From Caldisericaceae bacterium (GTDB lineage: Bacteria; Caldisericota; Caldisericia; Caldisericales; Caldisericaceae), in assembly GCA_049967855.1 (NCBI GenBank), contig JBMFRX010000009.1:1-57444 (forward strand): DNA of 57,444 bases. Direction: 5' to 3'. The notes under the pieces were generated by a model. That model was not told where the DNA came from and searched no databases. It saw only the letters and a list, made by a program, of their open reading frames with translations. Positions 49,261-57,444 of this stretch are shown piece after piece (positions within the stretch are counted from its first letter, which is position 1; every line of letters begins with the position of its first letter). A program made the position numbers and the translations under genes.

Positions 49261-49299
49261 TGAAATGTATTTTTTCAAAAATCTATGGGAGGTAGACTG

Positions 49300-50847
49300 A
49301 TGGAAAAAAATGAGTTAACCGAAATTTTGAATGAGAAGAAGAAAGCTATTCGCGGCACAGGCAACAAGGAAGCCGTCGAAAAGCAACACGCAAAAGGCAA
49401 GCTGACTGCAAGAGAGAGAATTGACCTTCTTTTGGATTCAGGTTCTTTTCAGGAATTCGATCTTTTTGTCAAAACACGCTCCACATACTTTGGGCTAGAC
49501 AAGAAAGACATTCCAGCAGACGGAGTTGTAACGGGTATTGGCACAGTCAACGGAAGAAGAGTAGCCCTTTACTCGCAGGATTTCAATGTTATCGGCGGTT
49601 CGTTAGGTGAGATGCATGCTTTGAAAATCACGAAGATGCAAGACCTTGCCACCAAACTTGGAATTCCTTTCATTGCAATGAATGATTCAGGTGGCGCAAG
49701 GATTCAGGAAGGAGTTGATTCTCTAAGAGGATATGGGGATATATTCGTGAGAAACGTAAAGGCCTCTGGAGTTATTCCTCAAATCTCACTCCAATTAGGA
49801 CCAACTGCAGGAGGCGCTGTTTATTCCCCTGCAATAATGGACTTTATTATTATGACTGAAAAAGCCACGATGTATATTACAGGACCAAATGTGGTTGAAG
49901 CAGTAACAGGAGAGAAAGTCACTCATGAAGAACTGGGAGGCGGTGTTATCCACAACGAAAAGAGCGGCGTTGCACATTTTCTCGCCAAAGACGACGCCGA
50001 AGCGATAGAAACCGTCAAAAAACTCCTTTCTTATCTTCCTGATAACTACTTGCAGGAACCAAGAGTGACTGAAAGTGACGATTCAACCGAAAGAGAAACT
50101 CCTGAGCTAAGAAACGCGGTCCCTCTTGACCCAAATAAAGCATACAACGTAAAGTCAATTATCAAAGCAGTGCTTGATGAAGGAGATTTTCTTGAAGTGC
50201 AGGAGACTTTTGCGCAGAACGCAGTTGTTGGTTTTGGGCGAATTGGCGGACGTAGTGTTGGTATCATTGCAAACCAGGCAATGTATCTTGCTGGAGTTCT
50301 TGATATCAACTCTGCCGATAAAATCGCACGATTTATCAGATTCTGTGACTCCTTCAATATCCCTGTCGTTACTTTTGTTGATACTCCTGGCTATATGCCA
50401 GGCACCGCCCAGGAACACGGTGGAGTTATCAGACACGGAGCAAAAATACTCTACGCATACTCTGAGGCTACAGTTCCAAAGATTACCATTATTCTGAGAA
50501 AAGCTTATGGAGGAGCTTATATTGCAATGTGTTCACGGCATCTTGGAGCAGATGCGGTATTTGCATACCCTAATGCTGAAATAGCAGTTATGGGAGCAGA
50601 CGGTGCGGCAAACATAATATTTGCAAAGGAAATCTCAAGCGCTCCGGACCCAGATGAAGCAAGAACACAGAAAATTAAGGAATATAGAGAACAATTCGCA
50701 AATCCGTATAAAGCAGCCGAACGGGGATACGTTGACGATGTTATTGACCCTGCTGACACAAGGAAAGTTGTTGCAAATATGCTTACCTTCCTCAGAAGCA
50801 AGAGCGAAGATGCTGTCCAAAAGAAGCACGGCAACATTCCACTGTAA
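49300..50847 (+). CDS. mmdA: Acyl-CoA carboxyltransferase (methylmalonyl-CoA decarboxylase alpha-like)
   Basis: GKLTARERI, DSGGARIQEG, VDTPG, RKAYGGAY and KKHGNIPL. Confidence 0.85.
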   Translation: MEKNELTEILNEKKKAIRGTGNKEAVEKQHAKGKLTARERIDLLLDSGSFQEFDLFVKTRSTYFGLDKKDIPADGVVTGIGTVNGRRVALYSQDFNVIGGSLGEMHALKITKMQDLATKLGIPFIAMNDSGGARIQEGVDSLRGYGDIFVRNVKASGVIPQISLQLGPTAGGAVYSPAIMDFIIMTEKATMYITGPNVVEAVTGEKVTHEELGGGVIHNEKSGVAHFLAKDDAEAIETVKKLLSYLPDNYLQEPRVTESDDSTERETPELRNAVPLDPNKAYNVKSIIKAVLDEGDFLEVQETFAQNAVVGFGRIGGRSVGIIANQAMYLAGVLDINSADKIARFIRFCDSFNIPVVTFVDTPGYMPGTAQEHGGVIRHGAKILYAYSEATVPKITIILRKAYGGAYIAMCSRHLGADAVFAYPNAEIAVMGADGAANIIFAKEISSAPDPDEARTQKIKEYREQFANPYKAAERGYVDDVIDPADTRKVVANMLTFLRSKSEDAVQKKHGNIPL

Positions 50848-50856
50848 GGTGATAAA

Positions 50857-51204
50857 ATGAACTCAAGCATAATAAATGAAGGGCTTTACATAGGTGTTGT
50901 TGGTATGACAATTACCTTTGCAGTGTTAGCCTTTCTTGGATTCATACTGTACTTATTCAAAGTGCTCATCTATAAGAATGGTAATGGCATAGCAGAACAA
51001 GTTCCTGAGGCGGCCGAAGATGTAGAGTATGCTCCAGAGAAGACCAAAAGCGAACTCTCAGACAAGAAAAAAATCGCAGCAATAGTTGCTGCAGTTGCAA
51101 CATTTTTCGGTTCACAGAAAAGAACAGAAGAAGAGGATTATAAGCACGCTGCAGAAAATAATGCAAACAAATCTTTAAAGAATAAGAGGTGGAGAAATGG
51201 GTAA
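50857..51204 (+). CDS. OadG/MmdD-like membrane anchor subunit
   Basis: GM.ITF.VL TM segment, IAAIVAAV and a C-terminal W. Confidence 0.82.
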   Translation: MNSSIINEGLYIGVVGMTITFAVLAFLGFILYLFKVLIYKNGNGIAEQVPEAAEDVEYAPEKTKSELSDKKKIAAIVAAVATFFGSQKRTEEEDYKHAAENNANKSLKNKRWRNG

Positions 51205-51643
51205 ATTACTAAAGGTAACTGTTGATGGAGAAACATTTTATGTTGAGATTGAAGAAATTCAAAAGAAACCAACCATTAAGCATATAGAAAAGTCTGAAAA
51301 AGTGTCTCAAGTAGAAACAAGCACCGAAACTCAGGTAGAACCTAAGCCAGAATCAAAGGAAACTGTTTCAAGTGTTCCAGTTGATTCCCCAGAGGAGGCA
51401 GAAAACAACCATTCAGTAAAGCATCCAGGAGACTATATACTTTCACCTCTTCCAGGAAAAGTTCTTTCAGTAAAAGTCAAAGAAGGTCAAAAAGTTAAAA
51501 AAGGTGACCTATTGCTAATGATTGAGGCAATGAAAATGGAGAACGAGGTACTTGCAGCTCACGATGCCGTTGTCACTAATGTCTATGTGAAGTCTGGTGA
51601 CTACGTAGAAACAAACGCAAAGCTTCTAAAAATAGAGAGGTAG
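51197..51643 (+). CDS. Biotin carboxyl carrier subunit (MmdC-like)
   Basis: VTVDG..F.VEIEE, a linker, SPLPG and the EAMKMENE biotinylation motif. Confidence 0.92.
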
Positions 51644-51645
51644 CT

Positions 51646-52767
51646 ATGAGCCTACTTATAAACCTTTTTTTCCAGAGCGGATTTGCTGCCATCACCTGGA
51701 AAGAACTTGTAATGATAGCCATAGGGCTAATCCTTGTTTACCTTGCAATATTCAAAGACGCAGAACCATTACTTCTTCTTCCAATAGGATTTGGAGCAAT
51801 ACTGGCCAATTTGCCTCTCTCAGGCATAACAAGCCCGCCAAACGGATTCTTCTATATTATATACCAGTCAGGTGTCGCAAATGAGTTGTTTCCAATAATA
51901 ATTTTTATGGGTATCGGCGCAATGACTGATTTTGGACCTCTCATTGCAAACCCCTGGACTATACTTATGGGTGCCGCCGCACAGCTCGGGATTTTCATGG
52001 CACTTCTTGTAGCGCTCCTGCTTGGGTTCAGTCTAAAAGAAGCTGCGTCAATAGGAATTATCGGAGGAGCAGATGGGCCAACGGCAATATACACGACGAT
52101 GAAACTTGCACCACAATTGCTTGGACCAATAGCTGTGGCTGCTTACACATATATGTCTCTTGTTCCAATTATACAACCGCCAATTATGCTCGCACTAACC
52201 ACAAAAAAGGAAAGAAGCGTTGTTATGGGTCAATTAAGGCCTGTTTCTAAGATAGAAAAGATTCTATTTCCAATAGTTGTTACAGCACTTATAGCTCTGC
52301 TTTTCCCTGTTGTGGCACCACTTATAGGAATGCTTATGATGGGCAACTTGTTCAGGGAGTCTGGAGTCGTTGACAGACTGTCAAATACGGCAGCAAATGA
52401 ACTTATAAATATTGCAACTATTTTCCTTGCAACAACCGTTGGTACGACAATGAGAGGCGATACATTCCTCACAGTAAAAACTATTGAAATCATCGTCCTC
52501 GGAGTAATTGCATTTGGAGGAGGAACGGCAGGAGGAGTTCTAGTAGGAAAGGTTTTCTACTGGCTAACTGGTGGAAAGGTTAATCCACTCATTGGCTCAG
52601 CAGGGGTTTCTGCTGTTCCAATGGCAGCAAGAGTTTCTCAAAAAGTTGGACAGGAAGAAAACCCAGGCAATTTCTTGCTTATGCATGCGATGGGTCCAAA
52701 CGTTGCTGGAGTTATTGGCACTGCGGTTGTCGCTGGTGTAATGATAACAATTCTACTTGGAAGATAA
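51646..52767 (+). CDS. Na+-translocating decarboxylase beta subunit (OadB/MmdB)
   Basis: [38 protein letters not shown] and HAMGPNVAG. Confidence 0.95.
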
Positions 52768-54019: not shown

Positions 54020-54048
54020 ATTATACAAACAAATGTTCGCTTTGTCAA
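54020..54048 (-). promoter_or_regulatory. dinB promoter containing a Gram-positive-type LexA (SOS) box
   Basis: Perfect TTGACA (54048-54043), 17 nt spacer, TATAAT (54025-54020). The spacer contains CGAACATTTGTTTG (54039-54026), one mismatch from CGAAC-N4-GTTCG. The ATG is 6 nt after the -10. Confidence 0.8.
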
Positions 54049-54157: not shown

Positions 54158-54424
54158 TTAATCCTTTAAGACAAGAGCAATAATTCCTATTGCAATGAAA
54201 ATTACACCAGAAATAATCTTCAGCGTCTTTGCAGGGATTACCTTGCTTAAGAATTCTCCAAATAATACTGCAATAAGCGAAGTTAGAGAAAGCGCAAGAA
54301 CAGCCCCTAAAAGAACCATCCACTTATTTTTGGCATTGGCTGTAAAAGAAAATATTGCGAGCTGCGTTTTATCTGCAAGCTCGGCAAGAAAAACTGCTCC
54401 AAAAACTGTCAAAAATTCTTTCAT
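54158..54424 (-). CDS. Half-size UPF0016 (TMEM165/GDT1) putative Mn2+/Ca2+ transporter
   Basis: 88 aa, three TM segments and the FLAELADKTQLA motif. ATG 54424 follows SD GGAGG. Confidence 0.88.
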   Translation of the reverse strand: MKEFLTVFGAVFLAELADKTQLAIFSFTANAKNKWMVLLGAVLALSLTSLIAVLFGEFLSKVIPAKTLKIISGVIFIAIGIIALVLKD

Positions 54425-54490
54425 ATAATGCCTCCAAAAAATATTTGAGCTATCACACAAGATACTTTATTTTATACAAGACTTGCTCAC

Positions 54491-54628
54491 AAAACGCACC
54501 CTAAAAAAGTGAGGGTTCCCTCTTGCGAGGGAACCACAGTGGCAGCAAAAGCCGCCAACGGGCTTATAGTCCCGAAGGACTGCCCAAAAGTGCCTCGTAC
54601 GGGATAGCTTACGCTTCCCAAAGAAGGC
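54491..54628 (-). ncRNA. Candidate structured RNA (cis-regulatory leader or sRNA), class unknown
   Basis: GC-rich island with four hairpins closed by GUAA, C(UUCG)G, UUUU and GCAA loops. G-U wobble pairs form only on the minus strand. It begins 7 nt after a TATAAT box. Confidence 0.65.
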
Positions 54629-54635
54629 AAAAATG

Positions 54636-54663
54636 ATTATAATTAAAAAGCCAAAATTTGCAA
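54636..54663 (-). promoter_or_regulatory. Promoter of the candidate structured RNA/UPF0016 gene
   Basis: TTGCAA (54663-54658), 16 nt spacer, TATAAT (54641-54636). Confidence 0.6.
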
Positions 54664-54715: not shown

Positions 54716-55693
54716 ATGAACGAAGTATTTGAAGTAATGCTTTTATTAGGTTTGCCAGCTTCTGGAAAGTCAGAAATAAGGCGTTTCCTGGCTAATCTTG
54801 ACGATGAGACACTAACAAAAGAATTTCACATTGGCGACACAATTCACCTTGATGACTTTCCCTACGTTTACCTTATGAGGAAAGTTGATTCGATTCTTGA
54901 AAAAAATGGCTATGCAAGGATTTTTGCAGATGCAGAAGAGCTTCCTTTTAAGGACCCCCGTGATTGGGGTACGCTCACACAACTCCTAAATGAAGATTAT
55001 TTTGACCTCTTGAGTCGAAAACAGATTAATGTTCCTTCATATACCAAAGAACTTTTTGAGAGAATAGACAATGCAGGCAATAAGGTGGGAATACCTGGGA
55101 GACTCTCAAAAATTGACTTCTCTGTTTACACTATTGTTGAAAGAGAATTGGAAGAGGAAGCAAGCAAACTCTTTACAGATAAGGTCAAATCATATCCTGA
55201 TACGCTTCAAGGAAAAACCGTCATCATCGAATTTGCAAGAGGCGGAGCCCAAGGCTCAACCCTTCCATTAAATCCTCCATTTGGCTATCAATACTCTCTT
55301 ATGCAGGTTGCAAATGAAATCCTTGAAAAGTCGGTTATACTGTACAATTGGGTGACTCCTGAAGAATCAAGAAGGAAAAATATGGACCGCGCTGATCCGA
55401 ATAATCCAGGTTCTATTCTTCACCATGGCGTTCCAATGGAAGTAATGCTAAAGGAGTACGGGGTTGATGACATTCAATGGCTCGTAGATCATTCTCCCGT
55501 GAAAGATACAATTACCATCAAAAAGGATTCTCGAACATTACACGTACCTGTGGCATTCTTTGACAACAGGAATGATAAGACAACATTCCTGAGACAGGAC
55601 ACAAGCCTCTGGGATAAAGAGCGCGTAGAGGAGATAACCAAAGCATTGAAATCCGCTTTCAATAAACTTTATATGCTTTCAAAAAAGGATTGA
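54716..55693 (+). CDS. Uncharacterised P-loop protein, NMP/nucleoside kinase-like fold
   Basis: N-terminal hydrophobic strand followed by GLPASGKS; IIEFARGG; lid-like EESRRKN..R; strong SD AGGAGG. Confidence 0.75.
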   Translation: MNEVFEVMLLLGLPASGKSEIRRFLANLDDETLTKEFHIGDTIHLDDFPYVYLMRKVDSILEKNGYARIFADAEELPFKDPRDWGTLTQLLNEDYFDLLSRKQINVPSYTKELFERIDNAGNKVGIPGRLSKIDFSVYTIVERELEEEASKLFTDKVKSYPDTLQGKTVIIEFARGGAQGSTLPLNPPFGYQYSLMQVANEILEKSVILYNWVTPEESRRKNMDRADPNNPGSILHHGVPMEVMLKEYGVDDIQWLVDHSPVKDTITIKKDSRTLHVPVAFFDNRNDKTTFLRQDTSLWDKERVEEITKALKSAFNKLYMLSKKD

Positions 55694-55899
55694 AATATTA
55701 AAACGGGTTAGAAGCATTTGCAAAACTGGTAAATACAGCCTCCGTGTTGCCTCACATAATTTCTTAATGTTATTTAACCTGCAATTTTTTTAGTAGGTTT
55801 TATTAAATATTATCTGGTTGCCTCATCTAAATTTTAATCTTTTGTAATCGCTAATCTTTTTCAAGCGATTCTATACGAAATTATTCTGAGTCAAAGGAA

Positions 55900-56161
55900 T
55901 GTACGCGTCACACGCATTTGAGACTCTCGATAATATTGAATTTGATTATAGAAAGCACTCATACAAAGAAGTAAACACATAATAAATTGGTGCCATAGTC
56001 CTCTCTAATCCGCTTTGAGATATTGTGGATTAGAGAATATCAAATCTACACTCATTTTAAGCAGATTTATTATTAAGACTTTTATGTGGTCTTTCGGTAT
56101 TGTACTATATGAGGTAATCGATAAGTCTTTTGTTAAATTCATTGATGTCGTACGAAAGAAG
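55900..56161 (-). pseudogene. Decayed IS481/IS3-like (integrase-core) transposase 3' fragment with a possible terminal repeat
   Basis: 56161-56057 translates to LLSYDINEFNKRLIDYLI*YNTERPHKSLNNKSA*, containing the YN..RPH.SL motif, with TAG probably derived from TGG. An out-of-frame ESQMRVTRT ends at a TGT-starting end at 55900. Confidence 0.6.
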
Positions 56162-56265
56162 TTTGAGCTTTAAGCCAAAGATCGCTTACTTAAAGTTCTA
56201 ATTTTGTTCTTAGAATTCAAAGCCAAAGTCTGTCTAAATTACTTTATGTCTCTACTAAAACCTGA

Positions 56266-56319: not shown

Positions 56320-57444
56320 TTAATGAATATATGACCTTAACTTCGTCCCAAGTTCCTTAAAACCATCCTCAGGAGAAATCTTCTGAAGGAAAATCTTCTG
56401 CAATTCTGACCCTATATCAACATAAGCCTGTGTCCATTCTCTTGTGATTGGCTCAATTAAGGCATTTGGTAATTCATCAAATCCAGCCCTTCTTTCAGGA
56501 TGCTGTTGAATGAATTCTTTCATCAAAGGTAGATCAAGCGCACTCTTTCTTACAGGCAGGTATGCAGTATCAATTGACCATCTTGCCGTTTGATACGTAG
56601 AAGTAAACCATTTTACAAATTCCCACGAACCTTTTGCAGTTTCTGAATCATATTTATTTCCGAAAATAACGACATTTGCACCCGAAAGCGTCGTGTACTG
56701 ACCTTTCGGACCCTGGGGAATTGGAGCCTGTGCCCATCTAAACCTACCACCTACTGCTTGACCTATATAGGTGTAACCGACAATGCTTCCAAAGACAAAA
56801 GCACATTTCTTGTTTCCAAAATCTGATTGATAGTCATATCCATTAGTAAAATGAATATCTCCGTTTTTGTACAATTCGTCAAGGAATTTTACAGGGGCAA
56901 GAGCATTCGGATCTTTATCAAAGAGAACACTTCTGGAGTCATCTGAGAGAACTCTTCCACCCCATTCATAGACCATTGCATACCATATATCGGCGATTGC
57001 ATCTGAAGAACTCATTCCAAGAGATGCACCCCATTGTGAGCCATCAGACTTTGTAAGAGCCTGGCACATTGTCGCAAATTCATCCCATGTTTTTGGAGGA
57101 TGATCAAATCCTGCTTCTTTAAGCATATCCACGTTGTAATACATTACCTCAACGCTCTTGTTAAAAGGCATTGTCCATATCTTACCATCTGGCATATAGC
57201 CATCTTTCCACATGATTGGGAAGAAATCATTGATATCCGACTGTGATAGACCCATTGAAGGATCTTTTACAAACTTTTCAACTGGAATAAGAAGGTTACC
57301 GAGCATGTAATTTCCAACCCAGCTTTCCCTTGCCTGTGCAATAACCGGATAAGTATTAGACATTATCGCTGCCGTTGTCTTTTGTTGAAGTAATGTGTAG
57401 TTTGCAACTGCAGTCTCAACAATTTTATACCTTGGGTGAGTTGC
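56320..57444 (-). CDS. ABC transporter family-1 extracellular solute-binding protein (UgpB-like), 5' end outside the window
   Basis: The frame is open to the window edge (ATHPRYKIVETAVANY...). Motifs: MPFNKS..MYYN.DML, PPKTWDE, GSWEFVKW and TAYLPVRKSA. Confidence 0.9.
   Translation of the reverse strand, partial: ATHPRYKIVETAVANYTLLQQKTTAAIMSNTYPVIAQARESWVGNYMLGNLLIPVEKFVKDPSMGLSQSDINDFFPIMWKDGYMPDGKIWTMPFNKSVEVMYYNVDMLKEAGFDHPPKTWDEFATMCQALTKSDGSQWGASLGMSSSDAIADIWYAMVYEWGGRVLSDDSRSVLFDKDPNALAPVKFLDELYKNGDIHFTNGYDYQSDFGNKKCAFVFGSIVGYTYIGQAVGGRFRWAQAPIPQGPKGQYTTLSGANVVIFGNKYDSETAKGSWEFVKWFTSTYQTARWSIDTAYLPVRKSALDLPLMKEFIQQHPERRAGFDELPNALIEPITREWTQAYVDIGSELQKIFLQKISPEDGFKELGTKLRSYIH

Follow-up and report, generated by a model that had tools for sequence, protein, structure and literature searches.

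The question raised by this locus is what four closely spaced hairpins are doing upstream of a cation transporter gene in a Caldisericaceae bacterium. The window (the whole stretch of DNA analysed, 57,444 nt) includes, at 54158..54424 on the minus strand, a gene for a single-domain GDT1/UPF0016 protein of 88 aa (PF01169, E 2.1e-21), as a first-pass annotation had proposed. The same annotation offered two readings of the hairpins: a new metal-responsive attenuator, or a free-standing RNA of about 125-140 nt. The second, with a length of about 125 nt and no Rfam family, fits the evidence below as a candidate.

The element, also on the minus strand, is predicted to fold into four hairpins in series. 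H1 (54628-54592) is long and irregular, with a GUAA loop, a bulged A, and a 3x3 internal loop; H2 (54585-54560) has a cUUCGg loop and a 4-nt AUAA bulge; H3 (54557-54540) is a 7-bp hairpin with one G-U pair and a UUUU loop; and H4 (54535-54514) is a perfect 9-bp hairpin with a GCAA loop and a terminator-like stem. A CUCAC spacer and a U6 tract follow (54503..54513, with U6 at 54508-54503), a predicted leaky intrinsic terminator. Inspection of sequence and fold placed the hairpins, loops, G-U pairs, promoter-like site, and U-tract where they had originally been reported. There is one dominant fold, with helices closed by tetraloops, linkers of at most 6 nt, and no competitive alternatives; H1 pair probabilities are 0.90-1.00 (149-nt fold), and the structure is predicted to hold at 70 C.

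This fold is not chance. Its minimum free energy (MFE) is -67.7 kcal/mol for 156 nt (z -5.46), a stability matched by none of 200 dinucleotide shuffles. A genome-wide scan took in 5,299 intergenic segments of 126 nt, of which only the 1,672 with GC of at least 40% were folded; among these 1,672, in a genome of 1.30 Mb, the element is the most stable (-61.9; the next, a tRNA cluster, is at -55.2), outranking tRNA clusters and rRNA. The minus strand folds at -61.9 vs. -53.4 for the plus strand. A search for hairpin clusters (at least three adjacent GNRA-, UNCG-, or UUUU-closed hairpins, MFE < -45) found the architecture only at this place in the 1.30 Mb genome and nowhere in 504 kb from two relatives. 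Two other intergenic segments with stable folds, both on the minus strand of contig C32 (46-171 and 2881-3006; -46.6 kcal/mol each), do not appear by eye to be tRNA or rRNA.

The tetraloops and strand-specific G-U pairs had been taken as a sign of selection on RNA structure. Both are present, but UUCG and GNRA loops are not in themselves proof of such selection, since the genome's Ssn-type DNA repeats, discussed below, share a C-TTCG-G loop. As for coding capacity, no ribosome site was found for a 47-codon open frame running through the element, and no small antisense ORF with a ribosome site was seen there.

The element matches no family in Rfam. Over the window, models at their gathering scores gave a single match, a tRNA, and none at the element; at E <= 10 over 501 nt there were nine sub-threshold matches, the best with 18.4 bits against a cut-off of 39. 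Identity as a tRNA, tmRNA, SRP, 6S, or RNase P RNA is ruled out, each of these models matching elsewhere in the genome (45 tRNAs, and the tmRNA, SRP, 6S, and RNase P RNA). Visual likenesses to the PyrR loop, T-box, and c-di-GMP RNAs were set aside, as Rfam gave no match and the gene context is wrong.

Searches for homologues were also blank. The element has a single copy in its own genome, by blastn, by a covariance model of its own, and by a 9-mismatch scan for H4; the many dispersed copies expected of a repeat element, a possibility raised at first pass, were thus not seen. BLAST of 261 nt against 60 relatives gave three matches of 21-31 nt, all within the AT-rich promoter part. A calibrated covariance model built from the element's single sequence (R1) matched none of 25 family genomes, none of five close genomes at E <= 10, and nothing in 504 kb of relatives (11 of ~210 contigs of G001 and 400 kb of the 1.56 Mb of G008); in the phylum, it matched 3 of 92 other genomes at 14-18 bits, aligned to H4 or to H3-H4 only. 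As a control for sensitivity, a single-sequence model of the genome's 6S RNA, of equal length and pair number, matched 19 of 25 family genomes and 38 of 92 overall, reaching 132 bits in a same-genus genome. Since the 6S control recovers relatives, the R1 blank carries weight for an RNA passed on vertically, allowing for assemblies that are incomplete.

Further afield, blastn against phage and plasmid collections found no match. Exact-pattern scans found no homologue among the 9 loci matched in GTDB, no loci in metagenomes, and no homologue in eight scans of viral sequences, which gave 0, at least 120, 10, 2, 8, 21, 10, and 0 loci. From the scan with at least 120 (covering 44 of 64 parts), 100 of the 120 listed were scored with R1, the best at 18.9 bits; no match exceeded 15 bits in later scoring rounds. 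Such scans need exact words, and a covarying family would escape them. A loose H2 pattern had matches in 20 of 26 family genomes, with the element's fold seen only in the element itself. A literature search on noncoding RNA in this taxon gave nothing related; large tables of candidate RNAs outside Rfam could hold a relative. No homologue was found, and thus neither covariation nor a donor, which counts against the small-RNA reading preferred below. The element is a real, odd, uncatalogued, and unusually stable singleton; it does not yet define a testable class, and its present value is as a seed for wider searches.

A sigma-70-type promoter-like site, P1 (TTGCAA-16-TATAAT, 54636..54663, minus strand; 10 of 12 positions matched), would start transcription at G54628, 7 nt beyond its TATAAT. 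By this promoter match, the predicted start is the first base of H1 and the first paired base of the fold. Only 0.43% of 213,540 intergenic positions have a P1-like site 5-9 nt upstream, and among 128 promoter-like sites preceding genes in this genome there is a purine peak at the seventh to eighth base after TATAAT, where G54628 falls. Promoter-like sites are not enriched in the surrounding 1.2 kb (5 found vs. 3.3 expected). The P1 -10 is part of a palindrome, ATTATAAT, shared with a promoter-like site on the plus strand (TTCCCA-17-TATAAT, 54615..54643), which overlaps it and faces a divergent gene for a 325-aa protein; the palindrome could therefore serve that gene alone. Downstream, H4 plus U6 passes the terminator scan (1 found vs. 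0.8 expected), but its stem and the U-tract are 5 nt apart. A 2-bp extension of H4 over a 3-nt bulge would close this gap at a cost of +1.1 kcal/mol. Because of the gap, termination at U6 would probably be leaky.

Stand-alone bacterial small RNAs with their own sigma-70 promoter and intrinsic terminator include the protein sponges RsmY and RsmZ, Spot 42, and the ColE1 RNAI. The element resembles these in its length (~120 nt), three to four stem-loops, promoter-like site directly upstream, and terminal hairpin with U-tract. Unlike them, it has no loop GGA and no long unpaired seed, its loops are tetraloops and not kissing loops, and no relatives of it were found.

The reading preferred here, tentatively and at somewhat less than an even chance, is that the element is a recent acquisition, a small-RNA unit whose product is a rigid RNA of about 120-126 nt. 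This RNA would work, if at all, via a protein, with incidental read-through into GDT1. P1 would transcribe it from G54628, and most transcripts would end at the U-tract, termination there being leaky. Recognition by a protein seems likelier than pairing with an mRNA since there is no long unpaired seed; the bulges (the A in H1 and AUAA in H2) and the GNRA loops would be the features recognized.

The proposed read-through follows from the state of the GDT1 promoter. Alignment with three relatives shows that the ancestral TATAAT of GDT1 is TGTGAT here; what remains (54452..54474, minus strand) is this TGTGAT and a TAAAAT without a -35, the alternative -10 having at most 2 of 6 matches at that position. 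GDT1 has no convincing promoter of its own, and its ancestral -10 looks decayed; its transcription may therefore begin at P1 and run on through the element. Read-through would likely supply it at a low constitutive level, as a by-product of the landing site and not through metal sensing. If the element has taken over GDT1 transcription, this would be a clear instance in which an imported RNA unit stands in for a promoter that has decayed; if it is a small-RNA gene, it is uncatalogued, with a fold whose stability exceeds that of every other intergenic segment folded here.

The genomic setting fits an imported unit. The order GDT1-dinP is kept in three relatives (G001, G002, and G009), and DNA similarity to G001 ends at 54444. 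On the other side, the 325-aa hypothetical protein (54716..55693, plus strand; a P-loop-like motif by eye, no match to a Pfam or NCBIfam family) belongs to a widespread unnamed family, with 3,568 relatives at E <= 0.001, which is patchy within the host's family: with this query its gene was not found in G001, G002, G009, or G016, and in G008 and G015 it lies inside another operon. Among its Atlas neighbours, AAA_18/AAA_33 is found on 15-26% of members. Four homologues (P0002, P0003, P0004, and P0013) share 69-96% identity with it; P0013, a partial protein with 96%, carries the Caldisericaceae label by which alone the analysis placed the genome. The protein was considered as a partner of the RNA and rejected, since no similar RNA occurs beside 15 homologues (13 metagenomic and two from the family). 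Beyond this gene are a degenerate IS transposase remnant (integrase core; 55700..56260, minus strand; PF13683, E 4.6e-5), ~1 kb from the element and with three more copies, likewise decayed, elsewhere in the genome (contigs C17, C3, and C1), and a solute-binding protein gene (56320-57444, minus strand) that is 90% identical to that of G008, from another genus, vs. 63% to that of G001, from the same genus, and was likely transferred horizontally in recent times. Both lie within 2 kb of the element. GDT1 and the 325-aa gene are each preceded by different genes in relatives, which makes both flanks of the element rearrangement breakpoints, in a region of recent traffic. If the element is a small-RNA gene, the absence of so stable a fold from all the relatives searched points to a mobile donor family that has yet to be sampled.

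The main rival to a small-RNA gene derives the element from repeated or mobile DNA, either as a reworked doublet of Ssn-type (GTCAT...ATGAC) palindromic repeats or as an IS end; its hairpins would then have arisen, or act, at the DNA level and have no RNA function of their own. This is unlikely, though it deserves the most serious attention of the alternatives. Ssn nucleases and their palindromic repeats have been described (PMC11893778), and the genome's GTCAT...ATGAC clusters and short GIY-YIG gene match that description; there are at least 24 Ssn-type units in the genome, together with the Ssn-like gene. Clusters of them are found on contigs C2, C7, C16, C22, C41, and C42, as well as at L049:1920-2171, and the GIY-YIG gene lies downstream of a broken TnpB-family gene.

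The element and the Ssn-related motifs, NTS, and dRS3 described in PMC11893778 are alike in being GC-rich intergenic hairpins with TTCG- or GCAA-type loops and short motifs in common. In particular, GGGC, TAAGCCCG, TGCCAC, and TCCCTCGCAA occur in the same order in the element and in repeat doublets, and GCGTAAGC together with an 11/12 match is shared with the C2 cluster; H4 has the N8 spacing of dRS3, ATTCCC-N8-GGGAAT as given in that source; of the weak model matches in relatives, the two best are palindromes of repeat-like form that match H4 and carry two compensatory changes; and the IS remnant is 1 kb away. However, the defining GTCAT and ATGAC ends are missing: compared with the genome's repeats and with the NTS consensus as given in PMC11893778, the element has no CGTCAT- or TGTCAT-tagged palindrome ending in ATC or ATGAC. 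The shared landmarks were chosen after being seen, and similarity to the repeats is not above that of shuffles: the alignment to repeat clusters was reached by 311 and 357 of 400, and by 24 and 41 of 200, structure-preserving shuffles. Shared 7-mers have P of 0.01-0.02 when loops are shuffled but 0.07-0.13 when they are kept, and shared 8- to 10-mers are not significant. Finally, and unlike these repeats, the element is a single copy behind a promoter-like site, with the start of its fold at the predicted transcription start.

The terminal TCAC of the element brought up the possibility of an IS200/IS605 end or a TnpB omega-RNA, which was rejected: there is no tnpA or tnpB nearby, no further copy of the end, and no Rfam match. 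The only TnpB-family match in the genome is the broken gene on C22, the 3′ end of which is unrelated. Like an IS200/IS605 right end or omega-RNA, the element has several hairpins, the last followed by TCAC; in the element, though, this is 1 nt after the hairpin and not about 10, and the guide/cleavage pairing rule of these elements is not obeyed by the four nucleotides at the foot of the hairpin.

As a second alternative, and as a counterpoint to a small-RNA gene, the hairpins may be mainly a 5′ leader of GDT1. Such a leader would contain no metal aptamer but would alternate between a form with H1 closed, leaving the ribosome site freer, and one in which the 5′ end pairs with the Shine-Dalgarno (SD) sequence, the trigger being temperature, a protein, or folding kinetics. 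The change of the ancestral GDT1 TATAAT to TGTGAT, with only a TAAAAT without a -35 to replace it, favours this, as does the SD itself (GGAGGC, 54430..54435, minus strand), which is complementary to the 5′ end of H1: in a 204-nt leader, GCCUUC:GGAGGC pairing has a probability of 0.40 vs. 0.57 for the base of H1, the two folds of the full leader being within 2 kcal/mol. Against it, 13% of 300 spacer shuffles give equal pairing of the 5′ end with the SD, which makes that pairing only a lead, and 39% give equal SD sequestration; H2-H4 take no part in the switch; and the element is not kept upstream of any GDT1 orthologue. On balance a function mainly as a leader seems improbable.

A more elaborate combination would place the element in an uncatalogued family of small RNAs, compact and mobile, of which it is the sole representative sampled; it would have been co-opted as promoter and leader of the cation exporter gene and gating it through the 5′ anti-SD sequence, possibly in response to metal. 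This is a long shot; if true, it would be a regulatory RNA caught at birth, in a lineage without the yybP-ykoY riboswitch.

The attenuator proposed at first pass, a new metal-sensing riboswitch for GDT1, is very doubtful. Its attraction is the setting: according to a review, UPF0016 genes are under yybP-ykoY control in 328 of 333 strains screened (PMC7380456), and the element, which may also provide the promoter on which GDT1 depends, lies upstream of just such a gene. Moreover, yybP-ykoY was found in none of 26 family genomes (RF00080, which did match 4 of 14 controls), and the model has no match at the element or elsewhere in the window or genome; its absence here had first been judged from missing hallmarks. 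Structurally, aptamers of that class are described as having a 3- or 4-way junction and two legs, with loops L1 and L3 docked across the junction (PMC12934788). The element shares with yybP-ykoY a place upstream of a UPF0016/GDT1 gene and four helices; its own, however, are in series, without a 3- or 4-way junction (probability of a closing helix < 0.01) or large internal loops comparable to L1 and L3 that could dock on Mn2+.

Nor does the element have a switchable terminator. Complementarity exists for both of the alternative pairings originally suggested, but neither is competitive, each making up less than 1% of the ensemble: the four-way junction has a probability of 0.004-0.009 at a cost of 5.2 kcal/mol, and the 5′ antiterminator a probability of 0.000 at 12.7 kcal/mol. 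The best fold of the 126-nt transcript without H4 costs 9.6 kcal/mol, so no terminator/antiterminator pair of similar stability was found (+12.7 for the one proposed, +9.6 for the best without H4). Conservation likewise argues against metal sensing. GDT1 orthologues occur in 7 of 60 relatives, and the element was seen upstream of none of the seven, one of which (G001) has only 57 nt before its contig ends; a divergent gene starts within ~100 nt in five, and in another a same-strand gene ends at the start codon. Ligand-binding RNAs normally keep their sequence at least within a family, whereas the element occurs in one genome. On these pairings and this distribution, the metal-responsive attenuator is not supported.

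The weakest alternative, a fragment or mimic of an RNA-phage hairpin acting as a coat-protein decoy, is extremely improbable: 22 nt of H1 match two small viral contigs, L135 and L232, which by eye resemble ssRNA phages (a coat-like gene, then the start of a second gene), with one loop change that keeps the GNRA, but within the viral collection only these two near-identical contigs carry the match, the model score is 14.5-15 bits, the remainder does not align, and the match was drawn from a loose scan with ~180 chance-level matches. The likeness is probably due to chance.

Two features of the region beyond GDT1 may be recorded here. The dinP gene (DNA polymerase IV) has a perfect TTGACA-17-TATAAT promoter (54020-54048, minus strand). 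Its spacer includes a GAAC-N4-GTTT sequence at 54027-54038, which resembles a Firmicute LexA/DinR box; the window shows no enrichment of sites of this kind (6 vs. 3.85 expected). Converging on dinP is a single operon (49285-52767, plus strand) that encodes the beta subunit of a Na+-transporting decarboxylase (PF03977) and, by eye, a carboxyltransferase, a small membrane subunit, and a biotin carrier.
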